64,000 bases of DNA from NCBI GenBank assembly GCA_036339735.1, contig JAYZAL010000088.1:56286-120285 (forward strand), written 5' to 3'. The translations under genes and the position numbers were made by a program. The stretch is from Candidatus Poribacteria bacterium (GTDB taxonomy: Bacteria; Poribacteria; WGA-4E; UBA9662). Shown piece after piece: positions 6,738 through 58,712 of the stretch; the stretch's first letter is position 1, and the number at the start of each line of letters is the position of its first letter. The notes beneath the pieces are model-generated. The model was not told the origin of the DNA, searched no databases, and saw nothing but the letters and a program-made list of their open reading frames with translations.

Positions 6738-8690
6738 TTAAGGCCAAAATTGATAGAGTGGGGTATTAGTAATGATACTAGCAATGCTCCAAATGCTCCC
6801 GAGGATGTAATCGCCTAGTGCTAAGCCTAGAAAAAACGGAATGGCACGGCGGTAAGACTGTAGACCGCCTTGTTTTAATATCACAGCTTTTAAAAACCAA
6901 GCAACAAATAAACAACACCATAAATTTGCCATCCCCCAGCTATTTGCCATAGCGTAACCAAGAGGGTGGAGAGGCCACCACAAAAACTTAGTTCGAATCA
7001 ACATCATCAAGGTCGTTATTATTACGCCTACTCCCATAAATGCTAAGCCAGGAATATCAACCTCGCGAGGAAATGTTAACCAGCCTTCTAGTTGTCGATA
7101 AACACCTCTTCCGAACCCGAGTGCCCAAGTTTCATAATAACCTGATTCTGCCCCATGGCGATAGTAGCTGTCAAGTAATAGCCAGAATACTACTATTGCA
7201 CCAACTAAAGTAGCCATCAAAATGGAAATCACTATTTGCTTTGAAGGAATCGACCGAGTTTGTGAAATCTTAAATGCTTCCAACATTTGCGGCATTGGAT
7301 GGGCTCGGTAGGCTCGATTAAAAAACATATATAAGGAAAATCCAATGAGGCTACCTGTTCCTATCCGCTGAGTACCGAAAGCCGTCACTAAAATACTATG
7401 TGGATCTATCCTGTGCAAGTCATGTACCAAGAAACCGAGTTCAGCTCTCACACGTGCTATCATAATAGCCAACAAAAAGTAAATCGTAAAAAATAGTAAA
7501 ATTACCCAAGGAGACATACCAATCTGGTAGGAAAAAACACTTAAAAAAGAACAGCCAAAGACAATACCTAGAAAGGCAAATCGGTAGTAAGTGAATTCTC
7601 TAACATCTTCGATTATAGGTTTTAAACCATACTTTATTCCTAAAAGAGACAATAGGTAACGCATGAGAGATTTAAAATGTCCTCTACCGGCCCATAAAGC
7701 AAAGCATAATAAGCCTATGTAAGCACCAAAAGCCTGCTCATTATCGTAAGGGAAACGAGGTATACCACGAAACCCAACTATTTTGCCTACCATCAATTCG
7801 ATCTTGAAAAGAGCATAAAAAAACCAACAAGAAAAAAGTAAATCAAGCGGTATTAAGAAGGCGATACCAATAGCAAATGGGTAAAAGGCAATCTTTACTC
7901 CACCCATCGCATTCCAAGGTCGGGCAGTGAAATAGTGTTGAATAGACTGACGTTTGACCGGTAAATATGGGACTTCAGGGTAAATCGAATTCATCAAATT
8001 CAGAATGCTAATTCCTGCTGCTAAACCGAAACCGAACCAAACTATCCTTCGATGAAAAAATCTGGAATCTGGATTTACCATTTCGAGCGGTAACTGAATG
8101 ATCGGATAAGTTAACCGCTCTCGTTCAGTCCATTGTAATCTCAACAAAATGTTTAGGCAGAGCATGACAATCATTAACACAAGGATAAAAGCAATCCACC
8201 AAACCGCGGGTTTCAGCCATGCATAAATATGATCTTGGGTATAGAGAGTAGAACCTCCTTCGTAATAATGGCGAAGTGCTTTTTCGTCACTGACAGTAAG
8301 CCATTCTGGCAGTTGACGAAGGAATATCTCTCGCCACTCATTTTCTGGTGTGGCGAAACGAAATGGGTGTCCCAAAATCGTGATTAAAATCTCCATCATA
8401 TCGTGGGAACAGAGAGATGAAACCACACATAGCATCACGTAAATAGTTAAAACTTCGGCTTGTGTTAGAACTAGTAAGGAGGAAAGTTGATTCAAAAACA
8501 GACCAATCAAAAGCAACCAGAAAATTATAAAAATAACATTTGATAATGGGTGAATAAGAGTTGGGTGAGTGTATCGAACGACCTCCAACTGTATCAGCCA
8601 AAATACATTAATTGGAATTAAACAGAGAACAATTAGAAAGGATTTGACTGTTAGACCATTCTCGGAAGGTGGATTCACTGATGAATCCAT
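6738..8690 (-). CDS. uncharacterised polytopic membrane protein, paralog 1 of 3 (about 14 predicted TM segments)
   Basis: 650 aa, highly hydrophobic. Shares the conserved motifs FATPENEW...LP.WLTV, RPWNAMG, HPMP.MLE.FKI, WWP.HP.GY and a C-terminal LGDY..GS.WS with the ORFs at 39367..41241 and 50934..52868. Confidence 0.5.
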   Translation of the reverse strand: MDSSVNPPSENGLTVKSFLIVLCLIPINVFWLIQLEVVRYTHPTLIHPLSNVIFIIFWLLLIGLFLNQLSSLLVLTQAEVLTIYVMLCVVSSLCSHDMMEILITILGHPFRFATPENEWREIFLRQLPEWLTVSDEKALRHYYEGGSTLYTQDHIYAWLKPAVWWIAFILVLMIVMLCLNILLRLQWTERERLTYPIIQLPLEMVNPDSRFFHRRIVWFGFGLAAGISILNLMNSIYPEVPYLPVKRQSIQHYFTARPWNAMGGVKIAFYPFAIGIAFLIPLDLLFSCWFFYALFKIELMVGKIVGFRGIPRFPYDNEQAFGAYIGLLCFALWAGRGHFKSLMRYLLSLLGIKYGLKPIIEDVREFTYYRFAFLGIVFGCSFLSVFSYQIGMSPWVILLFFTIYFLLAIMIARVRAELGFLVHDLHRIDPHSILVTAFGTQRIGTGSLIGFSLYMFFNRAYRAHPMPQMLEAFKISQTRSIPSKQIVISILMATLVGAIVVFWLLLDSYYRHGAESGYYETWALGFGRGVYRQLEGWLTFPREVDIPGLAFMGVGVIITTLMMLIRTKFLWWPLHPLGYAMANSWGMANLWCCLFVAWFLKAVILKQGGLQSYRRAIPFFLGLALGDYILGSIWSIASIITNTPLYQFWP

Positions 8691-9816: not shown

Positions 9817-10890
9817 CTAGGGATAGTTATATAGATTACCGGTTTCTGATGAAGATTCCGTAGAGCTAGGATCGGTCGTACTTGTCTGATCTAGCTCTGG
9901 TAACTGGTTAGCCGCAAATTCATCCAAAATGCAAGAGACAGTTTCTTCTGAGTACGCTTGTGAGTCGATGCTAGTTTGGTTTGCTTCCCAGGCCATCCGA
10001 GCAGCAGCTTCGAAATACTCAGCATGACGATAGCTATCGAGGATATCAACACCACGGGAGAAAGTACCGTGACCAGTCCAATACACGACATGACGAAATT
10101 GATCAGAATTCTTATCTGGAAGATCCTTCCCTTGGAATAGTCGTAGACTCTGAAACGACAATTCAGGTATACCTGGAGCTTTCTCCATCACCAATCCAAT
10201 TCCACCAACGCTATCGTATATTATCGGTGTCTCTGGTTCATAACCCTTCAAGAAATCATAAAACTTCTCAGGAACACCATGTTCTGATCGAGAAATCAAA
10301 TTTAGAAACTTAGGTTGTAGGTGTACCAAAGCATTAAATTCGTAATCCCCGAGCTGATCAAAAACTAACATATAGTGAAAAAACTCACTGGTGGGTTTAG
10401 GTAGTTTGTTCCCTGTTCTTTCGAGTTCTGAAATGGTTGGAGTACCATACCTCATCCGGTAGTGAACACCATCTGATTCCATTTCTAATATTGTTACGTT
10501 CAGGGAAGGATGTTCTAATCCAACCAAGTCTAATCTGCATCCAGACTTAGTCAACAAGACATGACGACCAACTAGGTTATTGACAGTAATCGCAGCAGGT
10601 AATCTACCACGTGGAGATTCTTCGATAGGTAGCAGGTAATCCGACCCGACTATTTCTGTCATTAGAGCCCCCATGTTACCAGCTGACCCCCATAAATATC
10701 CATTACGATGGGCATGGCTGCCAGCCCAGCCCATCTGCCCGATCAATGTTCCGATCTCGCTATCAACTCCAATGGGAGCCAAAGTCGGTTGGTATCCTCG
10801 CTCTAGCCACTTTCGATAGCGATAGCTTTGGGCAACAGGAGGGAACTTCTCTTGTGTCAAATAAGGATTGGTTAAACCCGCTGTACTCAT
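9817..10890 (-). CDS. class II aldolase/adducin-family domain protein (divergent; N- and C-terminal extensions)
   Basis: 357 aa. Its motifs align to FucA-type class II aldolases. The phosphate-binding segment WGSAGNMG matches GTAGNVS. SEFFHYMLVFDQLGDYEFNALVHLQP matches SEWRFHMAAYQSRPDANAVVHNHAV, with the second zinc His replaced by Gln. HVVYWTGHGTF matches LLQHHGLI. It ends in an S/T/E-rich low-complexity tail. Confidence 0.55.
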   Translation of the reverse strand: MSTAGLTNPYLTQEKFPPVAQSYRYRKWLERGYQPTLAPIGVDSEIGTLIGQMGWAGSHAHRNGYLWGSAGNMGALMTEIVGSDYLLPIEESPRGRLPAAITVNNLVGRHVLLTKSGCRLDLVGLEHPSLNVTILEMESDGVHYRMRYGTPTISELERTGNKLPKPTSEFFHYMLVFDQLGDYEFNALVHLQPKFLNLISRSEHGVPEKFYDFLKGYEPETPIIYDSVGGIGLVMEKAPGIPELSFQSLRLFQGKDLPDKNSDQFRHVVYWTGHGTFSRGVDILDSYRHAEYFEAAARMAWEANQTSIDSQAYSEETVSCILDEFAANQLPELDQTSTTDPSSTESSSETGNLYNYP

Positions 10891-10903
10891 CCTACTTTTT
10901 TCT

Positions 10904-11191
10904 CTACTTCTTATAAATGATTTGGCCCTCTATTTCGACCATATCCACGATTGCCATAACTACCGAATCTATCGGTTTCCCACTCGTTGAATCGGTATAT
11001 CGAGCGGAACTACCCGCTGCAGTCAAAACCATTTCGCCAATACCAGCTCCCACAGCATCCATTGCAACTGTGTATTGACGTACTAAATGACCGTCTATAT
11101 CAACTGACTGAACAATCATCAATTTGCTACCGATTAGTTTCTCATCTTTCCGAGTGGCAACTAGCGTGCCAACCACCTTTCCCAACGTCAT
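10904..11191 (-). CDS. EutN/CcmL/PduN-family bacterial microcompartment vertex (BMC-P pentamer) protein
   Basis: 95 aa. Aligns along its full length with E. coli EutN. KLMIVQSVDIDG...VAMDAVGAGIGEMVLTAAGSSAR...IDSVVMAIVDMVEIEGQIIYKK matches KLLMVEMIDPQG...VAIDNIGAGTGEWVLLVSGSSAR...VDLCVIGIVDEV..GGQVIF.K. Confidence 0.8.
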   Translation of the reverse strand: MTLGKVVGTLVATRKDEKLIGSKLMIVQSVDIDGHLVRQYTVAMDAVGAGIGEMVLTAAGSSARYTDSTSGKPIDSVVMAIVDMVEIEGQIIYKK

Positions 11192-11923
11192 CTAAATGCT
11201 CTTTTTTCATTGAATAGGCTGTTATGGTAAACTGAAATACAGATCAAAGTCAAGCTTACAATTTGGGTATTCTTCCTCTACATCTTGTTAATCAACATAA
11301 TTTGATCAGTGGATCATAAGAAATCAGAGAAGTAAGAAATTTCTCATCTTATGAAGTAAATATTCCACTGTACATCTCGGGTCAAAAACAATCGAGAATC
11401 GCTTCACACAACGTTACTTACAAAGTAAATGACGTAAAAATTTTATACTGAAGATATTCAGTTTTTCTTCGCTGACACACAGATTACCTGTATGATTGAT
11501 ACAATTTCGTTATGAATTTTTTATCTAACAAAACCAGTATAGCTCTAGCGTCTCTCGTATAATTTAATATCATTGCGTGAGTTTTCAAAAGAGATTAAAA
11601 ATCTCGGAGCCAATAGCTCAAATACATTTTGTCAGCTTTTATATTCTGAGAAGAATACGTTCAGGTGTGTAATAAGATAGACAAATTAGGTATTGACAAC
11701 TATGAATTACACGGTTCATCGTACTATGCGCAGTTGATCAAATTTTTAGACCTATTTTTCTTAAAGTAGACTGACTTATTGGAATGATTTGAAAACGAAC
11801 ACACCAAAAGAGAATAATAATACACAACTAGATAATACTATTTTATTCGTCCGTTGAACCTTGCTAATCCTGTTCGATTTCATATGATTCGATTATATAG
11901 AGTTGTCAAAAACTGATTCGGTT

Positions 11924-39366: not shown

Positions 39367-41241
39367 TTGAGTCAGCAACCAGAACTTGGTTCAAGTACCC
39401 GTTTCATTTCACGCGTTTTAATTTTTGGATCTCTCCTTATTGCATTAAATTGCTATTGGATTATTTCAGCGGAGAACCGAGTCGTATGGGAACTAACCGA
39501 TTTTTCGGTGTTTCCTACTGTTCTTTTTACTTTATTTGCTGTTTCTGGCGTAAATTTATTACTTAAGCGAACGTTCACCAGTCTGGCTTTACAAAACTCA
39601 GAGATCGCTACTATTTACATTATGGTCTCGGTATCGACCGCCTTGGCTGGACACGATATCATTCGACAGTTAGTGCCACTGATGGCAAATCCATTTTGGT
39701 TTGCCACTCCAGAAAACGAATGGGAGGAGCTATTTTTTCGTTATCTGCCTGATTGGTTAACAGTTCCAAATAGAAGTTTATTACGTGGTTACTTTGAAGG
39801 AGACGAAAATTTTTGGCAACCTCAATATTTTAATGCTTGGATTTTTCCTATATTGGCTTGGAGCGTTTTTGTAATTCTGTTGCTATTCGTCACTCTATGT
39901 ATTAATATCATTATCCGTCAACAATGGATTGAGCATGAGAAACTCAGTTATCCACTGACAGTCATGCCAATTGAGGTCATTTCAGATACCTCCAAACTCT
40001 TTTCAAATAAACTCGTGTGGATCGGGTTTTTGATAGCATTTGGTTTAGAGATAATAGCTGGCTTAAACTACCTCTACCCTTCAGTTCCCCCGCTAAAGAT
40101 AAAATATATAGTTCCCACAAACATTCGCCCTTGGAATGCTATGAGTTGGGGATTTGCTATTTACATTTATCCGTTTGCCATAGGGTTAGCTTACCTAATG
40201 CCGTTGGATCTTTCTCTGTCCCTTTGGTTTTTCCTACTAACCTGGAAGTTACAACCGGTGATTTTAACTGTGCTTGGATTTAATACGGCCGTTGGGCTGA
40301 TGAATGAACAACGATCAGGAGCTTGGATCGGTATTGGCGTAATTGCACTGTTAACCAGTCGTAATCACATTATCAAAATAGTGAAAGGTGTATTGACTCG
40401 AAGAGAAAATAGCAGTTTATACTATCTAGCCGTTTTTGGCATGATTTTTGGCACTGCACTGATGGTTCTATTTTGGTATCAAGCCGGTCTATCTCCTTGG
40501 GTTGCCATAACTTACTTCTTGATTTACTTTGTAATTTGTATTGGAATGACCCGAATGCGAGCTGAATTGGGACCACCAACTCACGAACTACACGGTGCAC
40601 ATCCAGACCGATTAATGGCCGGTTTTCTTGGCACACGCGCAATTGGTCCCGCTAACTTAACTAATACTACCCTACTTTCTTGGTTAGCTTATGGATACCG
40701 ATGCCACCCGATGCCGCACCAATTAGAAGGATTCAAAATTGGTTCCTATTTTGATGTCCGCTATCGCCGTTTGATAATTTCCATGATTGTTGCCTCGATC
40801 GTTGGAGCTTTCCTATCAATTTTGCTTCATGTCTCTCTTTATCACCGTTTTCAGTTTGCTCGATGGGGAGTTGGTGAATTCAACCATTTGAGAAATCAGA
40901 TTTTATTTCCTAAAGAAGCAAATCTTGAAGCCATGCAGCATGTAGGCATTGGGTTTGTAATCACAGCAGTTTTGACGGTACTTAAACGTCGTTTTATTTG
41001 GTGGCCTTTCTATCCAGCTGGTTATGCTGTTAGTAAAGGATGGGCTATGACTTGGATGTGGTTCTCTATTTTACTAGGATGGCTAGCCAAAAGACTAATG
41101 TTTGCCACCGGTGGTGTGAAATATTACCGAATAATGCTACCTCTATTTCTGGGTTTTATATTTGGACAATTCTCAGCAGGTAGTTTATGGAGTTTGATAG
41201 CCATAATCACTGGTAAAAACATGTATACGATGTTCCCCTGA
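39367..41241 (+). CDS. uncharacterised polytopic membrane protein, paralog 2 of 3
   Basis: 624 aa. Same motif set as 6738..8690 (FATPENEWEELFFRYLPDWLTV, RPWNAMSW, HPMPHQLEGFKIG, WWPFYPAGY, ending ...YTMFP). Divergently transcribed from the epimerase/Gfo pair. Confidence 0.5.
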   Translation: MSQQPELGSSTRFISRVLIFGSLLIALNCYWIISAENRVVWELTDFSVFPTVLFTLFAVSGVNLLLKRTFTSLALQNSEIATIYIMVSVSTALAGHDIIRQLVPLMANPFWFATPENEWEELFFRYLPDWLTVPNRSLLRGYFEGDENFWQPQYFNAWIFPILAWSVFVILLLFVTLCINIIIRQQWIEHEKLSYPLTVMPIEVISDTSKLFSNKLVWIGFLIAFGLEIIAGLNYLYPSVPPLKIKYIVPTNIRPWNAMSWGFAIYIYPFAIGLAYLMPLDLSLSLWFFLLTWKLQPVILTVLGFNTAVGLMNEQRSGAWIGIGVIALLTSRNHIIKIVKGVLTRRENSSLYYLAVFGMIFGTALMVLFWYQAGLSPWVAITYFLIYFVICIGMTRMRAELGPPTHELHGAHPDRLMAGFLGTRAIGPANLTNTTLLSWLAYGYRCHPMPHQLEGFKIGSYFDVRYRRLIISMIVASIVGAFLSILLHVSLYHRFQFARWGVGEFNHLRNQILFPKEANLEAMQHVGIGFVITAVLTVLKRRFIWWPFYPAGYAVSKGWAMTWMWFSILLGWLAKRLMFATGGVKYYRIMLPLFLGFIFGQFSAGSLWSLIAIITGKNMYTMFP

Positions 41242-41630: not shown

Positions 41631-42407
41631 ATGTTTTTCAATCATAAAGCTAATAAACTATTCATACTACTGTTAATAGGTATTGTTTCTTCATTGCAAA
41701 CTCTCAGTTGGTCAGTAGAACCTGATAAAGATTTACTTCTATATTTTCCAATGGAAAAAGATCTCTTAGATGCCAGTGGAAACAAAAATGATGGAGAACT
41801 TGCAAATGGAAAAGTATCTTTGCAAAAAGGAAAATTTGGAAAAGCTATTGAATTAGCAACGGATCAGCCAATTGTAATCGAACCTTCGGATAGCTTACAT
41901 GGGGATATATTTCTCGAACCGTTTACTTATACCTTATGGATAAACCCAGATTTCAAAGGAACGGAGTGGGGCCATTTATGGCGTAGTTTGCCTGGAGCTT
42001 CTGGGCATAATACTTTATTTCTCAACTCGGCTCAAGGATTATTCTCTTTTAGAGGTGTCGTCGGTGGGTGGACCATTCTCTGTCAAACTGACGGTGGATT
42101 AGTCAAAAAGAACACTTGGTACCAAGTTACTCTAACTTCTGATACTAAGAAATTTAGAATCTATCTCAATGGAAAGCTAGAAAAAGAAGCTGACTACCAA
42201 AAGACAGCAGGAAAAATTGCGGAGTTTCGCATCGGTGGTTCTGGTGGTGAAACTTATTCAGGTTTGATAGATGACGTTGCTTTTTACAGACGAGCCTTGG
42301 GCAAAAACGAAATCGAATCCATTACCGAAAGTGGAATGGAAGCGTTTCTCTCAGTCGATCCTAAAAGAAAACTAACGGTCAGTTGGTCCAGAATAAAGAC
42401 AGAATAG
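41631..42407 (+). CDS. secreted LamG-like (concanavalin A-like lectin/glucanase fold) domain protein
   Basis: 258 aa. Signal peptide, then a jellyroll-type pattern ending with the DD.AFY (LIDDVAFYRRAL) motif characteristic of LamG/laminin-G_3 domains. Confidence 0.55.
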   Translation: MFFNHKANKLFILLLIGIVSSLQTLSWSVEPDKDLLLYFPMEKDLLDASGNKNDGELANGKVSLQKGKFGKAIELATDQPIVIEPSDSLHGDIFLEPFTYTLWINPDFKGTEWGHLWRSLPGASGHNTLFLNSAQGLFSFRGVVGGWTILCQTDGGLVKKNTWYQVTLTSDTKKFRIYLNGKLEKEADYQKTAGKIAEFRIGGSGGETYSGLIDDVAFYRRALGKNEIESITESGMEAFLSVDPKRKLTVSWSRIKTE

Positions 42408-50933: not shown

Positions 50934-52868
50934 TCAGTTCGGAAATACGCGGTACATTGGAATGTCGAGCAGGGTACCAATGAGGCTAAAAATACTACCG
51001 CTTAAGTAGTCCCCCAGCAGCAGACCAATAAAAAATGGCATTGCTTTTCGGTATAGACGAATCCCACCGTACTGGAGAATAACCTTTTTTAGGCACCAAG
51101 ACACAAACATTGGTGTCCAAATTAGGTCCATGTTAAAACTATGACCAACTGCATAACCAATTGGATGGATCGGCCACCACAAAAAGTGAGTACGTAAAAA
51201 CATCAGAAGGAAGGTTGCTAAAATCCCACCACTGATAAAGGGTAAGCTACTGAAACCAATGTCAGTTGGAAAATCCAGCCAGTTTTGCAACTGGCGATAT
51301 GGAATCAGCCCCATGTTCGTACGCCATGAGTTGACGTACGGTGTACCTGCCCCCTTAATATAATACATTCTGAGGATATTCCAGTAAGCAGCAATAATAC
51401 CGACGATCATTGCCAATACAATAATGCCTAACATAGATCGAGTTTCTATTTTACTGACTTTGCCAATTCGAAGACCTTCCAACTGGTGTGGCATCACTGC
51501 ACAACGATAATCTAGATTAAACCATTGAAAGTAAGCCAAAATAGTTAAGTCCCTTGGATTTAGTAATCTGGAACCAGCCACATGTACGATCAATTGTGGT
51601 GGATTTATATAGGGACCAAAATTCCATATTACGCCACCTTCCGAGCGTATTCTTGTCAATCCAATCATATAAAACAGAAACAAAGATATAAAGATAATAC
51701 CCACGATTAAGCGCAAGCCGGCCAAATAGGAAAAGGTTACTAGTACCAAAATGCCAATCAATAAACCTAACCAAGTATATCGCTCGTGAATAGGCTCATC
51801 CGAAGATTGACCCGACCAGGCAATATAGAAGGTTTGAAGTAAATGTTTTCGACTGATCCACAAAGCCAAAAAAGCCAGTCCGAGCCATGCTCCAACGCCC
51901 TGCTCAAGAATGGCTGGATAACGACCAGTTGGCCCCCAAACGGATCCTCCTCCACTAATTAATGCGGCTCCCAACACTTGTTGTCCTTTGCGAAATAGAA
52001 AGAAAAACCAGCAACTAAAAGAAATTTCAAGTGGAATGAAGTAAGTCAAACCAATGACACAAGGGTGAAAAGCCACCGGCAACCAACCTACCGCATTCCA
52101 CGGCTTTTGACTAAATAAGTGTCCAATATCAAAAGGCTTGACTTTTATATAAGGAAGATACGGATAGTAATACTGCAGCGAATTATTAATTTGTATAGTA
52201 GCAGCAATTAGGAAGCCAATCCACAGGTATCGATTTCTCAAGTAATCGCCGAAACGTTTCTCCCTGAGACTCAGTTCCACAGGCAACGTAGTGATGGGGA
52301 ATGACAGCTGTTCTTGTTCTAACCATCTCTTCCGTAGAAGTACGTTAATACATAGCATGACCCACAGAAAAGAAAAGGTGAATCCACTCCAAGTCAGGAT
52401 CGGAATCAGCCATGCTTTGAGATGGTCAACACGGTAAATAGTTGAATCGCCAAGATACAGTCGTTGAATTGCATCTTTACTTTGTGGCACGAACCAACTT
52501 GGTATATTAGGTAAAAAATCCCGCCAACTATTCTCCGGAGTTTCGTACCAGAATGGATTACACAATGCTGTAACCAGAAACCCGAACATACCAATACCAT
52601 TGATGCTCATGCCGATATTAAGCATGACAAAGATAGTTAGTATTTCGGCGGCCGAAAGAGCGGAATTAGGTACAATCTTTTCTAATACTGTATTAGTCAG
52701 TATTAAGAGAAACAAGATGAAAACGGAACCGATCAGAAGTGAAGTTGAGGTGATTTCAGTCACACCCGTAACCATCTCTGAGTTCGAAACCCAAAATGAG
52801 CTAGTAATAATTAGCAAAAGACCAATCAAAATTGACCTTTTAGTTGCCTTTTGCTCAAGGGTTTTCAT
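50934..52868 (-). CDS. uncharacterised polytopic membrane protein, paralog 3 of 3
   Basis: 644 aa. YETPENSWRDFLPNIPSWFV, KPWNAVGW, VMPHQLEGLRIGK, WWPIHPIGY, LGDYLSGSIFS, ending ...YRVFPN. Divergent from the Gfo/Idh/MocA gene at 53395. Confidence 0.5.
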   Translation of the reverse strand: MKTLEQKATKRSILIGLLLIITSSFWVSNSEMVTGVTEITSTSLLIGSVFILFLLILTNTVLEKIVPNSALSAAEILTIFVMLNIGMSINGIGMFGFLVTALCNPFWYETPENSWRDFLPNIPSWFVPQSKDAIQRLYLGDSTIYRVDHLKAWLIPILTWSGFTFSFLWVMLCINVLLRKRWLEQEQLSFPITTLPVELSLREKRFGDYLRNRYLWIGFLIAATIQINNSLQYYYPYLPYIKVKPFDIGHLFSQKPWNAVGWLPVAFHPCVIGLTYFIPLEISFSCWFFFLFRKGQQVLGAALISGGGSVWGPTGRYPAILEQGVGAWLGLAFLALWISRKHLLQTFYIAWSGQSSDEPIHERYTWLGLLIGILVLVTFSYLAGLRLIVGIIFISLFLFYMIGLTRIRSEGGVIWNFGPYINPPQLIVHVAGSRLLNPRDLTILAYFQWFNLDYRCAVMPHQLEGLRIGKVSKIETRSMLGIIVLAMIVGIIAAYWNILRMYYIKGAGTPYVNSWRTNMGLIPYRQLQNWLDFPTDIGFSSLPFISGGILATFLLMFLRTHFLWWPIHPIGYAVGHSFNMDLIWTPMFVSWCLKKVILQYGGIRLYRKAMPFFIGLLLGDYLSGSIFSLIGTLLDIPMYRVFPN

Positions 52869-53394: not shown

Positions 53395-54555
53395 ATGAAA
53401 AATGAATTTTACCGTGTAGCAATTTTGGGGTGTCGTAGCCGAGGCCGAGCAGCAGCTCTAGCCTACCATGACCATCCTCGTACTAAGATTGTTGGTCTCT
53501 GTGATTTAATTCAAGACCGCCTTACTGAATTGGGAAACGAGCTTAGCATAACAGCCCAATACACAAATTTGGGTCGAATGATTGAAGAAACTAAGCCTGA
53601 TATTGTGGTAATTGCAACCGGTACAGAGTTTCACTATGATCTTTGTATGCAAGTTCTAGAATATGGGGTTCATATTGAGGTTGAAAAGCCGATGTGTGTT
53701 GACTTAGTTCAGGCTGATGAGGTAATAAGCAAAGCAGAATTAAAGAAATGCAAGATAGCGGTTCACCATCAAGGCCGCGTAGGTCCTGCAATGTTAGCTC
53801 TACAGAAGGCTATTGACCAAGAGAAAATTGGCGAAATTCGTTATCTATACGGAAGTGGTAAAGGATACTACGGTGGTTATGGACTAATGAACATTGGTAC
53901 TCATATGATAAATAACATGCTCCGGTTCACCCATCAATGCCAAAGTGTTGTCGCTCATACGACGACTAATGGTCGGTCGATTGAAACGAAAGATGTTTTA
54001 GCATCTCCAAGTGGCATGGGTACGATTACCGGAGAATATATTTCAGCCAGTTTTCAGTTTTCTAGTAATGTTACGGGAACACTTTTACAGCACCGATTTG
54101 ACAAAATGGATACCAGCGCTTACGTAATGGAAATTTACGGTTCTGAAGGGCGTTTATTCTGGAGATCCAATCAAGCTTGGTGGCTACCTCAACCTCATTA
54201 TGTTCCTGGCATGAAATGGGAACCCTTAGACCCAATTTTTCCTAAATGTTATCAGCCAGGAAATCTATCGGATGCCGACGATTTTAGTTTTGTCGATGAG
54301 TATGTACGAGCACTTGATAATGATGACCAGCATGAGTGTAGCGGTTATCAAGGCCGACATGTTTTAGAAATTATGATGGGAATCTTTGAATCGTCTACCG
54401 ATGGAACTAGAGTAAATCTGCCTCAAGTAGATCGACAACATCCACTCTTGCGCTGGAGCGCTGACAGCAGTTCAAACGAGAAGAGTGGAAATTTGGAATC
54501 GCTACCACGAGACTATCCATCATGGCTCTCAAAACTAGGAATTAATAGCTTCTAA
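53395..54555 (+). CDS. Gfo/Idh/MocA family oxidoreductase
   Basis: 386 aa. N-terminal Rossmann motif VAILGCRSRGRAAA and the EKP motif (HIEVEKPM). Confidence 0.8.
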   Translation: MKNEFYRVAILGCRSRGRAAALAYHDHPRTKIVGLCDLIQDRLTELGNELSITAQYTNLGRMIEETKPDIVVIATGTEFHYDLCMQVLEYGVHIEVEKPMCVDLVQADEVISKAELKKCKIAVHHQGRVGPAMLALQKAIDQEKIGEIRYLYGSGKGYYGGYGLMNIGTHMINNMLRFTHQCQSVVAHTTTNGRSIETKDVLASPSGMGTITGEYISASFQFSSNVTGTLLQHRFDKMDTSAYVMEIYGSEGRLFWRSNQAWWLPQPHYVPGMKWEPLDPIFPKCYQPGNLSDADDFSFVDEYVRALDNDDQHECSGYQGRHVLEIMMGIFESSTDGTRVNLPQVDRQHPLLRWSADSSSNEKSGNLESLPRDYPSWLSKLGINSF

Positions 54556-54953
54556 TTATTGAATTTAAGCACCCTTCGTAGAGAATATTAGATAAATACA
54601 GAAATAGAGTTGGGAAAACAATTCTATCAAGACTGTCACGTTCTGAAAAACAATATTAGGATCATGTATGATATAAATTTGTTTGAAGTAGGACTGGTTA
54701 CGATTGCAAACAAATTGGATCGATTATAATCCTAATTTCTATCGAAGAATTCAATTACACAATATTGCAAGTTAATTTTGGGTCTATGCTTGATCTTGCA
54801 GGAAAGACGAATAGATGGTACGATTTTGCGCTGACATCTTGTCAGTATTTCGGTCTAGGTGTGCTGGCTAAATCTTAGTATGATTTACTCATTCTCTATT
54901 TAGACCTAACTAAATTTAAAACTTTAAAAACGAAATTTTTCTGTAGGAGACTA

Positions 54954-55667
54954 ATGCACATGAAAAATAATATTATGTTGATCTTGGCAGGATTTCTATT
55001 ATTGGTCAGCACAATGACCAATATAGAAGCCGGGGTAAAAGTCCCAGGAACAATAATAGGAACAGGTACCAAAGCTTTATTAGGAGGAGACCTGACTGAT
55101 CCAGAAGATGATGGCGCACCTGAAGAAGATACAAATTACAATGCCAAATTCACCTCCAGTGATGAGCCAGGATTTGGAGGAGGAGAATTTGCCTTTAATG
55201 TATTTGATAATATACTTGGGCCAGGAAATGACAAGTGGTGTTGCGGTAAAGGTGGCATAGGAGATGGCGAAGGTATGCATATAACGGCCGAACTTGATGC
55301 TCCACATTTATTGACACATTTTACTTTATCTTCAGCCAACGACGTTCCTGATAGAGACCCTACAACTTGGGAAGTTCAAGGATCGAATGATGGCAAAAAA
55401 TTTACAACCATCTTTTCTTATGATGGCGATAACCTTTTTACTGATCGGCTTCAGGTCATTCGTTTCGATGCAGGAGAAGACTTCGATGCACAAACCACCG
55501 GGTATCGATTTTTCAGACATATCACTTTCAAAACAGCTAATTGGCCAAACGGAGCTTTCTTTCAAATTGGTGAAATTGAGTATTTTGGCACCCCAGCTGA
55601 CGATACTGCTGTGAATCCTAAGTCCAAGCTTGCAACACAGTGGGGAATATTGAAAAATAATCGGTAA
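54954..55667 (+). CDS. secreted discoidin (F5/8 type C)-like domain protein, tandem paralog 1
   Basis: 237 aa. Signal peptide, acidic linker (DLTDPEDDG), then the F5/8-C-like pattern FNVFDN...KWCCGKGG...MHITAELD...LTHFTLSSANDVPDRDPTTWEVQGSNDGKKFTT. Confidence 0.6.
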   Translation: MHMKNNIMLILAGFLLLVSTMTNIEAGVKVPGTIIGTGTKALLGGDLTDPEDDGAPEEDTNYNAKFTSSDEPGFGGGEFAFNVFDNILGPGNDKWCCGKGGIGDGEGMHITAELDAPHLLTHFTLSSANDVPDRDPTTWEVQGSNDGKKFTTIFSYDGDNLFTDRLQVIRFDAGEDFDAQTTGYRFFRHITFKTANWPNGAFFQIGEIEYFGTPADDTAVNPKSKLATQWGILKNNR

Positions 55668-55699
55668 ACCTTGTAAAACAATAGTGTTTACTATCTATA

Positions 55700-55737
55700 C
55701 AAGATTGAGGTGAAAATAACTAATCACCTCAATCTTG
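55700..55737 (+). terminator. 14-bp perfect hairpin (10-nt loop) in the spacer between the tandem discoidin paralogs
   Basis: CAAGATTGAGGTGA at 55700-55713 pairs with TCACCTCAATCTTG at 55724-55737. The trailing TCTTAGTT is only a weak U-tract, so this may be an attenuator or processing site rather than a strong terminator. Confidence 0.4.
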
Positions 55738-55786
55738 TCTTAGTTGGCACTTATTTTCAAACTTATTTTATGGGAGTCAATTACGA

Positions 55787-56470
55787 GTGAAAGTTAATAT
55801 TTCGATGTTGTTAGTGGTTTTACTATTGGTCTCTGTTGTTGATATTTCTATTGCTGAAAAGGACTTAGGTACAGGTACAGACTCACTTCTAGGAGGAGAC
55901 CTAACTGACCCAGAAGACGATGGAAAGCCAGAACAAGATAAAAATTACAATGCTAAATTTACTTCTAATGATGAACCTGGTTTCGGAGGAGGAGAATTTG
56001 CATTTAACGTATTTGATAATGTTCTTGGGCCAAGCAATGATAAATGGTGTTGTGGTAAAGGCGGTGGTGCCAAAGAAGGAATGTGGGTAACTGCAGAATT
56101 TGATAAGAAATATGCATTGACTCATTTTACCGTATCATCAGCTAATGATGTTCCTGCTAGAGATCCACTGGTATGGGAAGTTCAAGGATCAAACGATGGC
56201 AAGAAATTCACTACTATTTACTCACATGACGAGAAGAAACCCATTTGGACTCAGAGGCTTCAAGTCATCCGTTTCGACGCGGGAAAAGACTTCAAAAAGC
56301 AAACCGTCGGATACAAATTCTTCCGTCATATTACCACTGAAACTCAATCTTGGCCGAATGGAGCCTACTTCCAGATTGGTGAAATTGAATACTTTGGTGA
56401 TACGAATTTTCCAGTAGACCCTAAATCCAAACTAACAAGTTCATGGGGAAGGATCAAAAGTAATCGATAG
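55787..56470 (+). CDS. secreted discoidin (F5/8 type C)-like domain protein, tandem paralog 2
   Basis: 227 aa, about 70% identical to the upstream paralog by eye over the whole mature region (same KWCCGKGG, SSANDVPARDP, WEVQGSNDGKKFTT and QIGEIEYFG blocks). Confidence 0.6.
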   Translation: MKVNISMLLVVLLLVSVVDISIAEKDLGTGTDSLLGGDLTDPEDDGKPEQDKNYNAKFTSNDEPGFGGGEFAFNVFDNVLGPSNDKWCCGKGGGAKEGMWVTAEFDKKYALTHFTVSSANDVPARDPLVWEVQGSNDGKKFTTIYSHDEKKPIWTQRLQVIRFDAGKDFKKQTVGYKFFRHITTETQSWPNGAYFQIGEIEYFGDTNFPVDPKSKLTSSWGRIKSNR

Positions 56471-56567
56471 GCACTGCTAACTAGAGCTTGTCTAAAAACT
56501 CTGGCTGTGTCCTTCTATTGTAGGCATGGTGTCATTGTTTGTTTAATGATTAACAACTTCAGCACGG

Positions 56568-56600
56568 AAGGGACCTGTTCTATTAACGGGTCCCTTTTTT
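56568..56600 (+). terminator. rho-independent terminator downstream of the second discoidin paralog
   Basis: AAGGGACC at 56568-56575 pairs with GGTCCCTT at 56589-56596 (GC-rich 8-bp stem, 13-nt loop), running into TTTTTT at 56595-56600. Confidence 0.6.
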
Positions 56601-57545
56601 GATTCTACGAAAAGATTCTCTTAAAAGCTAAACTCACCGGATCAGATATTTGAGGAATTCGAGCAAGGTCATTTTGAGTGAAGTTAATCTGCTTGTCCCC
56701 TATCTCATTTTTAAACCACCGCGTTTGTTTTCTTCGTCTTGGTAACATTTATGTTATCTAAAACAAGAGAATGGATATTCCGATAGTTAAAGGAATAGTA
56801 TGTTGGCCCAAAAAGACACGTTAATTGGTCAGATTCAGCCTCTTCCATAGCTACTAATTAAGTCATACCAAGAGATTCTTGGTAAGGTTCCTCGAATAAA
56901 TCGAAACAATCAAATGCGATATACCTTCGAGAGTAACTCCAAATTTGGTATCCGTCCTAGTAATTCTTTCTAAAACTTCACGTGCTATGTAATCCCCTTC
57001 GGTTTAATTAGCAGGATTGTGGATCGACAAACAAAATTGACTTGAATAATTCTGGTACTTTTTATCTAATTAGAGAAAACTCAATATATTTAGGCCATGG
57101 ACCTGTTGGTGACATACGAAGATGTTTTAAATGATCCGGTGATCCATTTGGCTTATGTATGCAGTAGAACTAAGGCAACTGATTTTCATTCAGTAGACAA
57201 GCCCAATCTTTCGGATTGATTATAAGAATAATTGTGTCGCTGGTAATTGAAAGTTGATCAATGCCCGTCTAATCAGTTCCCATTATATTTTTTCCATTTG
57301 AAACACTAATTTCTTCCAGTAAATTCTCCCCCGAATCATACTTTTATCCTCATCCTCAAAAACTCTACCAGTAGCTGTCCGATTTTCAACATGATCTAGC
57401 AACGTAAAACACAAGAAAATTACAAGTTATTATAATAAATTATTTCATTCGAATATCCTCTTTGGGATTGCTGGATGAAAATAAATTTATTTCTAACATG
57501 TATCGTATTCCGGCGTTCGAAAAACTCATTTAAGTTTATGTTAAT

Positions 57546-58712
57546 TTACTTTCTAGAAAAATTCCATCTTTTGAAGATTAATCGAAAATCTTGAAGGATA
57601 CGTTTTTTACTCAGACCAAATTGAACAAGAGAATACTGGTGCCTACTTATATAGCGTGAGCTGTTCTCCATTATCTGTTTTACTTCTTGATCATAAACTG
57701 ATGAATACTCGAGATCTAATTGATGGTAGATACGTTTGATTTCGTTCCGAGGGTCATTACGAAATTCATCATAATTTAAAATTTTATACCGATTTTCTTT
57801 GTAGGCTGTGAGTTTAGTCAACGGATAGTGGTACCAATGACGAATCATTTCCATCGTGCTTTCAAAAATAGGAGTCCTATTTTTAAAGACTCCTTCATTA
57901 ACGTTAGCCAAGTGAGTACATAAGTACTGGAATACACTCAGATTAGAGGGAATTGTACTAATTGGATTACGGATAATTAAAATAAAACGAGATTCTGGCA
58001 AGAACGTCATTATAGATTCAATACGAGGACAAAAATGAGGATTTTTAGATAAAAAACTTTTGTTGGGTCCAAAAACATATAGGTGCCGACGGACGCAATT
58101 CTTGTAAAATTCCATTTGCTTTTTTCTAATACTATAAGGCACTTCCTGATCATAGTAGATATAAGGTTTAAAATCTTCCTGATAAGGAAATAAATAGATT
58201 AAGAAAAAGCTAGAAAACTGGTGAAGAAATATCGCTTCGTCTTCTTCCATGTCGAACCAAGATAACTGATGAAGTTGATGTAGGTTTTTAAACCACCAAG
58301 ACTCAAAATTCGCCATCAATTGAAAAATAGAAGAACCGAACAGACGGTCCAACCGACCTAAAAATAAGAAAATGTACTTCTGGCAAATGGCTGGAGCAAC
58401 GCATACTTCCCAAAGGCTCATACCTGTAAATTGGGCATGGTCTTTCGAAATAATTCTTTGCAGAAAAGTTGTACCGCTTCTTGGCACACCGATGATAAAG
58501 AGCGGTTTAACTTCGATCTTTTTATAACTATTAAAGAAAATATCGTCGAGATAAAAGCATATCCAGTTAAATATCTGTTGAGGTATAAACCAAATTGAGA
58601 AAAGGAAAAGTACGAATAATTGCTTAAAACGTGGCTTATTTGGTTGCCGAATTGTGTCTGAGAAAAGTTTAGACATCAAGGTTATAAAAAACCGGTAATT
58701 AAATACATTCAT
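57546..58712 (-). CDS. sulfotransferase family protein (PAPS-dependent)
   Basis: 388 aa. N-terminal TM segment, 5'-PSB motif GVPRSGTTFL and 3'-PB-like IIRNPISTIPS. Confidence 0.7.
   Translation of the reverse strand: MNVFNYRFFITLMSKLFSDTIRQPNKPRFKQLFVLFLFSIWFIPQQIFNWICFYLDDIFFNSYKKIEVKPLFIIGVPRSGTTFLQRIISKDHAQFTGMSLWEVCVAPAICQKYIFLFLGRLDRLFGSSIFQLMANFESWWFKNLHQLHQLSWFDMEEDEAIFLHQFSSFFLIYLFPYQEDFKPYIYYDQEVPYSIRKKQMEFYKNCVRRHLYVFGPNKSFLSKNPHFCPRIESIMTFLPESRFILIIRNPISTIPSNLSVFQYLCTHLANVNEGVFKNRTPIFESTMEMIRHWYHYPLTKLTAYKENRYKILNYDEFRNDPRNEIKRIYHQLDLEYSSVYDQEVKQIMENSSRYISRHQYSLVQFGLSKKRILQDFRLIFKRWNFSRK

Follow-up and report, generated by a model that had tools for sequence, protein, structure and literature searches.

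The stretch analysed here, 64,000 nt of a Candidatus Poribacteria genome (contig JAYZAL010000088.1 of assembly GCA_036339735.1, positions 56,286 to 120,285 of the forward strand; hereafter the window), carries two tandem genes for exported discoidin-fold proteins, each of which is made of four parts: a signal peptide, a beta-sandwich of ~180 residues, a Cys-Cys dyad within the motif KWCCG and an apparently unstructured C-terminal tag of ~19 residues. As such, the tandem pair is ordinary, its members being old paralogues of an already annotated family ('discoidin domain-containing protein'). The main finding concerns the dyad and the tag: it is possible, and we put it forward tentatively, that these proteins are discoidin-fold exports bearing a Cys-Cys or Cys-selenocysteine redox active site, together with a hitherto unrecognised sorting signal, common to many other secreted proteins, which lacks a transmembrane segment and in this phylum replaces the PEP-CTERM or type IX secretion system (T9SS) signals. 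Gene 1 (54954..55667, + strand) codes for 237 aa, or 235 aa if translation starts at 54960, and gene 2 (55787..56470, + strand) for 227 aa with a GTG start; both are Cys forms. Coordinates given with no locus name are positions in the window, and two relatives are named throughout, a TARA Oceans scaffold (L001) and the Candidatus Poribacteria metagenome-assembled genome isolate SAT10 (L004).

The cysteine dyad and its predicted exchange with selenocysteine

According to the translations, the sole cysteines in either protein are those of the dyad, namely C96-C97 in gene 1 (TGT TGC, 55239..55244, + strand) and C88-C89 in gene 2 (TGT TGT, 56048..56053, + strand). K94, W95, C96 and G98 do not vary among 49 family members, and the conservation of C97 is at least 90%; in distant relatives with PEP-CTERM ends too, the first Cys of the dyad (there C70) is invariant and the second (C71) at least 90% conserved. 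An earlier note on this DNA, made from the sequence alone, had pointed out an unusual conserved Cys pair at this place, and the alignment bears it out.

Several family open reading frames (ORFs) of relatives appear to be split (92 + 126 aa), the split being an in-frame TGA exactly at the second Cys codon (KWC-TGA-G). This codon, absent from the window genes at that position, is found in six genes from five sponge-associated Poribacteria genomes: L023 11349-12044 and 12611-13291, L045 5308-5829, L072 10951-11655, L076 9989-10693 and L081 10004-10699. When read through, each of these genes displays a signal peptide and the module (hidden Markov model scores of 339-458 bits) with no other frame disruption, and the tag is present in the five complete ones, L045 being cut by the contig end. 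The ratio of non-synonymous to synonymous substitution rates (dN/dS) of the TGA genes is 0.14-0.65 downstream of the TGA, similar to the 0.20-0.89 calculated upstream.

A small hairpin, GGC-A-TTCC-GGN-GGAA-G-GCC, is present in 6/6 TGA genes, its GGN loop starting 20 nt downstream of the UGA. In the one TGA gene whose protein differs there, the hairpin is kept as CCTTCC-GGC-GGAAGG, and one compensatory pair was noted. The hairpin resembles a selenocysteine insertion sequence (SECIS) element; its core reads TTCCGGNGGAA and was found in 6/6 TGA genes vs. 9/103 Cys genes. No tRNA for selenocysteine was found in the window.

The six relatives are predicted selenoproteins, with KWCUG at the dyad. 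As Cys and selenocysteine would be exchanged at that codon, the second Cys of the dyad is probably reactive and redox-active, and the predicted exchange points to a redox chemistry that the earlier note had not foreseen. Poribacteria are listed among the phyla with selenocysteine-containing [NiFeSe] hydrogenase variants (2026 paper, PMC13582414), and selenocysteine is described in one source (PMC1794560) as evolving from redox-active Cys. As for a link between selenoproteins and bacterial discoidin domains, nothing was found in the literature.

A C-terminal tag on exported proteins of Poribacteria

The tag of ~19 residues has the form V-[DE]-P-x2-K-L-T-T-x-W-G-x-[IL]-K-x3, then stop. In gene 1 it reads AVNPKSKLATQWGILKNNR (55608..55664, + strand) and is modelled as disordered, with a predicted local distance difference test (pLDDT) score below 50. 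Sequence comparison located it in gene 2 (PVDPKSKLTSSWGRIKSNR; 56411..56467, + strand) and at the end of an unrelated exported LamG-type gene of the same window (LSVDPKRKLTVSWSRIKTE; gene at 41631..42407, + strand).

The distribution of the tag was analysed in 1.49 Mb of Poribacteria DNA, where non-family ORFs of at least 100 aa were scanned for W-[GA]-x-[ILVM]-K no more than seven residues away from the stop codon. As a whole, 41 non-family ORFs end in this motif vs. 0.19 expected from its internal frequency, and its positions in non-family ORFs are terminal in 41 cases vs. internal in 7. The aligned consensus of the 41 tags is [LT]-[AP]-V-[ED]-[PA]-x2-K-L-[TA]-T-T-W-[GA]-x-[LI]-K, with W and K each retained in 41/41 and V in 39/41. 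Signal-peptide-like N-termini are displayed by 32/40 tag ORFs vs. 231/1,045 other ORFs, and the domains of the tagged cargo include LamG, 3-keto-disaccharide-hydrolase-like, PA14/RhaB_D2-like and PD40. In the form V-[ED]-P-x2-K-L-T-T-W-[GAS]-x-[IL]-K, the tag was also noted on more than 40 unrelated exported ORFs (loci L010-L083), whose genes often occur as tandem pairs.

Concerning the homologues of the window proteins, the tag is carried by 118 of the 120 close discoidin homologues and by 55 of the 60 homologues of the LamG protein, all named ones of which are from Poribacteria; one LamG outlier (42% identity) has a dockerin and a T9SS C-terminal domain in place of the tag. Among more distant discoidin representatives, 0/149 have the tag and 34/149 have PEP-CTERM-like ends, and 0 of the ~1,990 ORFs of the sampled Poribacteria loci have such ends, the same regular expression recovering 12/13 positive controls. 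Distant homologues that stand alone bear a genuine PEP-CTERM directly after the ...EIEYFG strand, with TIGR02595 above cut-off in 7 of the 10 tested, and MAFFT aligns the VDP of the tag with the PEP of these homologues, in which V-P-E-P is followed by a helix and an Arg cluster.

For both window proteins, the search for TIGR02595 gave no NCBIfam match at E ≤ 1, no hydrophobic stretch follows VNP/VDP, and no Pfam match to the T9SS C-terminal sorting domain (PF18962) was obtained. Three homologues (P0024, P0053 and P0068) are named 'PEP-CTERM sorting domain-containing protein' by NCBI; they have no NCBIfam match at E ≤ 1 and no transmembrane tail, and their name looks inherited from more distant homologues. 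The tag itself has no model in Pfam or NCBIfam, its sequences were not found in the literature, and only incidental co-mentions of Poribacteria and PEP-CTERM, with no meaningful link, were met there. A protein search with the tag only yielded nothing other than fragments of 41-64 aa, uninformative on taxonomic range. The tag is apparently undescribed and has been seen so far only in Poribacteria; we infer that it is a phylum-specific localisation signal, functionally analogous to the PEP-CTERM or T9SS domains.

The two genes, their fold and their family

Genes 1 and 2 lie on the same strand, 119 nt apart, and their products share 73% identity across 204 aa (BLASTP, E 2e-110); over the whole codon alignment, the identity is 69.5% for the proteins and 68.6% for the DNA. 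By inspection, both proteins show an n-region and a hydrophobic core. The predicted Sec signal peptide of gene 1 (54954..55031, + strand) would be cleaved between IEA and GV, homologues aligning with a hydrophobic N-terminus that ends in AQA before E, and that of gene 2 between SIA and E. The two secreted tandem paralogues of about 70% identity described in the earlier note are thus recovered, at 73% and with Sec-type signal peptides in both.

A Shine-Dalgarno sequence AGGAG (54945..54949, + strand) precedes the ATG at 54954 by 4 nt and the ATG at 54960 by 10 nt. Given this 10-nt spacing, and since a 97%-identical homologue (P0001) begins MKNNIML, i.e. at the second Met, the second ATG at 54960 is the more likely start of gene 1. 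As for gene 2, its translation-initiation region (55760..55786, + strand) contains GGGAG at 55772-55776, and in the alignment the whole 27 nt before the GTG is identical between the window and L001/L004.

The Pfam model F5_F8_type_C (PF00754) scores 31.4 and 32.6 bits in the two proteins, above the gathering cut-off of 28.2, and the fold matches agree with this assignment, so that the F5/8-type-C domain recognised earlier in both proteins holds. In gene 1, profile matches, AlphaFold2 and Foldseek delimit an extended discoidin/CBM32-like (family 32 carbohydrate-binding) module at residues ~34-214 (55053..55595, + strand), which includes a conserved N-terminal extension, LGTGT..GGDLTDPEDDG. A first AlphaFold2 model, built with close homologues only, reached a pLDDT of 63.8; a more diverse alignment gave 89.3 for the mature protein, with a predicted template modelling (pTM) score of 0.84. 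The extension reaches a pLDDT of 93-98 in this model, and values below 50 are confined to the final ~20 residues. The 'acidic linker' of the earlier note does not survive this analysis: GGDLTDPEDDG is among the most conserved blocks (D46, D49, P50, E51 and G54 are invariant) and, as modelled, is a confidently folded part of the extended CBM32-like module.

The best solved structure found by Foldseek is the F5/8 domain of the Neobacillus novalis GH92 mannosidase (7nsn, E 2e-9), which the sequence profile also matches at 1e-13 via the common stretch SxANDxxxRDPxxWxxxGSxDG. The Clostridium perfringens GH89 CBM32-5 (PDB 4a41/4a44) was matched with template modelling (TM) scores of 0.74-0.76, normalised to the target. 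The predicted fold is a galactose-binding-like beta-sandwich of ~180 residues, and a carbohydrate-binding or adhesin role is plausible from the sequence.

A search of 5.8 billion proteins provided 458 close homologues. The top 120 show identities of 58-97% and, for the most part, a length of ~230 aa, and every named organism among these 120 is Candidatus Poribacteria. At the genomic level, a scan in which each GTDB species was represented by a single genome found 327 relatives; the top 80 come without exception from Poribacteria, and they include two or more dispersed loci for at least 19 genomes. Tandem family pairs occur in about a dozen of 84 loci. With a mean column identity of 75% and 59 invariant positions over 49 sequences, this is a highly conserved, often multi-copy family of Candidatus Poribacteria. 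NCBIfam holds no model for it; the NCBIfam model 'CCXG family PEP-CTERM' was considered and rejected, as it matches homologues only in their PEP-CTERM end and is not the same family. In the literature, no link was found between Poribacteria and discoidin or CBM32 proteins such as these.

In an exhaustive profile search, positions ~28-210 of the profile were matched by 2,810 representative proteins, and for 242 of these the match was below 1e-30. Many of the 2,810 are large multidomain proteins with the module present one to three times, next to PA14, bacterial TSP3, RTX, PKD, cadherin-like, dockerin and LamG domains; judged from these architectures, the domain context of the module is extracellular and adhesin-like. 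Stand-alone relatives of 230-310 aa retain the LGTGT..DLTD extension and the WCC dyad.

Age of the duplication and instability of the locus

Between genes 1 and 2, the proportion of synonymous differences (pS) is 0.67, i.e. saturated, for a dS of about 1.7 (Nei-Gojobori), with a dN of 0.25 and a dN/dS of 0.15, and nowhere along the gene is there a tract of low divergence. L001/L004 contain a separate orthologue of each copy, with 96% protein identity, and the window genes differ from these orthologues by a dS of 0.31-0.36 and dN/dS values of 0.046 and 0.057. A neighbour-joining tree built on 100 family members places the window copies with their own orthologues, with bootstrap values of 200/200 and 151/200, and unites all pelagic copies in one weakly supported clade (96/200).

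Because synonymous sites are saturated and each copy has a separate orthologue, the duplication is, by this comparison, older than the split of the window organism from SAT10, and it probably took place within the pelagic lineage. Of the earlier description as a recent tandem duplication, the tandem paralogy stands and the recency does not. Both copies are, on these dN/dS values, under strong purifying selection. An assembly-duplication artefact was also considered and rejected, as the copies differ at ~31% of nucleotides and the order gene 1, hairpin, gene 2, terminator recurs in L001 and L004, which are other assemblies.

Within the L001 array, genes 8001-8690 and 10747-11430, 2 kb apart, have a pS of 0 over their last ~110 codons and saturated 5' halves, which indicates that the tail of 8001-8690 was recently converted by the gene-2 orthologue 10747-11430. 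The window segment 50934-54555, with a DUF6785/DUF6784 membrane-protein gene and a GFO/IDH/MocA gene, corresponds to L001 6640-8690; at that place L001/L004 have two additional paralogues, and in L001 the DUF6785 gene survives as a remnant of 70 residues. A segment of 164 nt follows gene 2 in the window (56649-56812) and precedes gene 1 in L001 (9463-9626). Compared in this way, the locus is unstable and a rearrangement hot spot. The ~950 bp at 56600-57546 of the window have no ORF longer than 47 aa, only broken minus-strand frames, and the equivalent spacer of L001 measures 295 bp; a decayed transposase or mobile element was suspected there and dropped, no Pfam match being obtained.

As for neighbouring genes, the DUF6785/DUF6784 membrane protein is the sole recurrent one, being present in 24 of the 84 loci and within 1 kb in 13. 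The window has three paralogous DUF6785+DUF6784 membrane proteins of ~640 aa, at 6738-8690 (-), 39367-41241 (+) and 50934-52868 (-).

The intergenic stem-loop and transcription of the pair

The spacer between the genes contains a stem-loop (55699..55738, + strand) with a perfect 15-bp stem (arms 55699-55713 and 55724-55738, 100% complementary) and a 10-nt loop, beginning 31 nt after the stop codon of gene 1; the spacer folds with a z of -5.4 vs. shuffles. The perfect hairpin reported between the genes is therefore real, its stem being one pair longer than the 14 bp claimed. Within the window, its arm sequence recurs no more often than chance would allow and is thus not a dispersed repeat, and Rfam gave no match within 54400-57600. 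The hairpin does not have the makeup of a Rho-independent terminator: its 3' flank, CTTAGTTGGCAC, contains no U-tract, and a terminator scan made no call. In L001/L004, 13 of the 15 pairs are kept despite six substitutions, with one double change from A-U to G-C and two wobble changes.

A Rho-independent terminator follows gene 2 (56566..56600, + strand), with a stem at 56566-56598 of 14 pairs, six of them G-C, a GGGACC/GGTCCC core and a T-run at 56595-56600 (T6). It is conserved in L001/L004, in agreement with the canonical GC-rich stem and T6 described earlier after this gene.

Within the family, the mean folding energy of the 70 nt that follow the stop codon is -20.1 kcal/mol vs. -11.5 for other ORFs, and 47 of the 98 family genes share one conserved 3' sequence of ~65 nt ending in a stem and a T-run. 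This common sequence runs RCGCAAATATCRGACATTTTCTAAATCGGCTTGAATCCAG...CTTGGTTTGAGCCGTTTT, as in L008 10694-10763, L015 9764-9830 and L084 1006-1060. By eye, the unpaired 25 nt before its terminator stem are as conserved as the stem itself, and the whole hints at a regulatory element of the 3' untranslated region; Rfam returned only sub-threshold noise on this element of the relatives. The window hairpin has the same position as the family's 3' stem-loop, with a different sequence and no U-tract.

No sigma-70-like promoter was found on the + strand of the spacer. A sigma-54-like TGGCAC (-24-like) at 55745-55750 was rejected, having no -12 GC and not being conserved in L001/L004. Read from the sequence, the best interpretation is that some transcripts plausibly continue into gene 2, the hairpin serving for leaky termination or for stabilisation of the 3' end. 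Gene 1 would be transcribed from its own promoter; the stem-loop would be the positional equivalent of the family's 3' terminator hairpin and, as it has no U-tract, would act as a leaky terminator or 3'-end stabiliser; and gene 2, with its own GGGAG and GTG start, would be expressed from read-through transcripts ending at 56566-56600.

Proposed function and alternative explanations

Taken as one whole, the explanation that we favour, and to which we give slightly better than even chances, is that of ancient paralogues which are localised by their tag, bind a glycan with their sandwich, carry a chemically active CC/CU dyad and are separated by a leaky hairpin. After Sec export, the tag would direct the proteins to the cell surface or envelope, or hold them there, in the role taken elsewhere by the PEP-CTERM/exosortase or T9SS C-terminal domains. 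The ligand bound by the beta-sandwich would be a conserved one, most likely a glycan that belongs to the envelope or matrix of the cell itself, since the dN/dS is very low, and the CC (or CU) dyad would carry out thiol/selenol redox chemistry or covalent capture at the ligand site. Several points weigh against this explanation. The window genes are Cys forms, selenocysteine forms being met only in sponge-associated relatives, and the SECIS-like hairpin, with 8 pairs and -8 kcal/mol, is a small one that overlaps conserved codons and is found in nine Cys genes as well. All established signals of the exosortase/sortase type include a membrane-spanning segment, which the tag lacks, and no consistent operon partner or sorting enzyme was found among the neighbours in 84 loci; the DUF6785/DUF6784 association is weak, as these genes are multi-copy and their enrichment is at best about 2-3-fold. 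The conservation of the intergenic hairpin amounts to one independent comparison, in which the whole spacer diverges at about the synonymous rate, and most other tandem pairs have spacers of 165-563 nt, with several hairpins that are full terminators.

This last point bears on the most serious rival, which concerns transcription only: the genes may be two independent transcription units, the hairpin being a gene 1 terminator that is Rho-assisted or works with no U-tract, and gene 2 having its own promoter overlapping the 3' side of the hairpin. Long spacers and several full terminators in other tandem pairs make independent transcription the norm of the family, those spacers being long enough for promoters, and a strong 3' stem-loop of their own, often with a T-run, is usual for family genes. 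In the window, however, the stem ends only 48 nt before the GTG, the + strand of the spacer has no sigma-70-like site, and TGGCAC lacks both the -12 GC and conservation in L001/L004, so that we regard independent units as somewhat unlikely. Concerning the tag, it may instead be a shared structural or interaction peptide (a partner-docking strand or an oligomerisation element) or a non-functional PEP-CTERM relic. The absence of a hydrophobic segment and of a basic cluster, of a dedicated enzyme nearby and of any NCBIfam or Pfam model would fit such a peptide; a relic, on the other hand, would not keep its W, K and V almost without exception across unrelated families, nor stay confined to the extreme C-terminus of exported proteins, and a docking peptide would still be a localisation device, which brings this unlikely alternative close to the favoured explanation. 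The TGA copies could also be pseudogenes or sequencing errors, in which case the CC dyad would bind a metal or have a purely structural role, as a vicinal disulfide, in what would be plain lectins; in line with this, the SECIS-like hairpin is weak and several TGA-carrying genomes are metagenome-assembled. We consider it distinctly unlikely, given that the identical codon TGA recurs in six genes of five genomes and several different sequence records, that it aligns exactly with the conserved Cys, a classic Cys/selenocysteine signature, that no further frame disruptions are seen and purifying selection persists after it, and that the hairpin motif is enriched (6/6 vs. 9/103). Finally, the reading of the earlier note, i.e. 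a small lectin or adhesin module that was recently duplicated in tandem, with a hairpin that sets mono- vs. bicistronic expression, is consistent with the tandem, same-strand arrangement at 119 nt, with the presence of the discoidin domain and with a family that duplicates and converts, as the identical last ~110 codons of L001 8001-8690 and 10747-11430 illustrate. It is nevertheless very improbable: in the window pair pS is 0.67 throughout the gene with no low-divergence tract, both copies are separately orthologous in L001/L004, and its recency part is refuted by dS, the raw pS excluding a dS well below 1.

If the tentative reading given at the outset is true, a new selenoprotein family on a lectin scaffold would be added to bacterial selenoproteomes, and a sorting machinery yet to be discovered would be implied. 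The predicted Cys/selenocysteine exchange in a CBM32-like fold points to redox or covalent chemistry in an exported protein whose scaffold is usually seen as a passive sugar binder, and would explain why the CC pair had seemed 'unusual'. As for the tag, it would offer a handle on cell-surface building in an uncultivated phylum, both sponge-associated and pelagic, and its clean definition would suit phylogenetic profiling aimed at the enzyme or receptor by which it is recognised.

Comparison with known systems

The PEP-CTERM/exosortase system (TIGR02595; PMC1569441) is the closest to the tag in that the same module, where it stands alone in homologues of 230-310 aa, is followed by a genuine PEP-CTERM. 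The Poribacteria tag opens with V-[DE]-P at the aligned PEP position, and the range of cargo is similar (lectin-like domains and small secreted proteins, many per genome). It differs by having neither a transmembrane helix nor an Arg cluster and no match to TIGR02595, and no exosortase was found near the sampled Poribacteria genes.

Intercistronic or 3'-end stem-loops set differential expression in operons, as do the repetitive extragenic palindromic (REP) elements in malEFG and the puf operon hairpins. The window shares with these systems a stable stem-loop with no U-tract right after the upstream cistron and a downstream cistron with its own ribosome-binding site; unlike REP elements, the window hairpin is single-copy and not a dispersed repeat.

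Mammalian thioredoxin reductase has a Gly-Cys-Sec-Gly redox centre (Sec, here, for selenocysteine), and a vicinal Cys-Sec dyad can form an eight-membered selenenylsulfide ring. The W-C-U-G of the predicted selenocysteine relatives is likewise a vicinal Cys-Sec followed by Gly. However, the Poribacteria dyad lies inside the beta-sandwich of an exported bacterial protein and not at the flexible C-terminus of a cytosolic flavoenzyme, these proteins have no flavin adenine dinucleotide (FAD)/NADPH domain, and the window genes are Cys-Cys.

With the CBM32 and other bacterial F5/8-type-C domains, finally, the window proteins share the same beta-sandwich, the SxANDxxxRDPxxWxxxGSxDG stretch common with 7nsn and a PF00754 score above cut-off. 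Whereas those domains are joined to a glycoside hydrolase, the Poribacteria proteins stand alone, and they add to the sandwich an N-terminal extension of ~40 residues (LGTGT..GGDLTDPEDDG..YNAxF), an invariant vicinal CC/CU dyad right after the canonical Trp, and the C-terminal tag.

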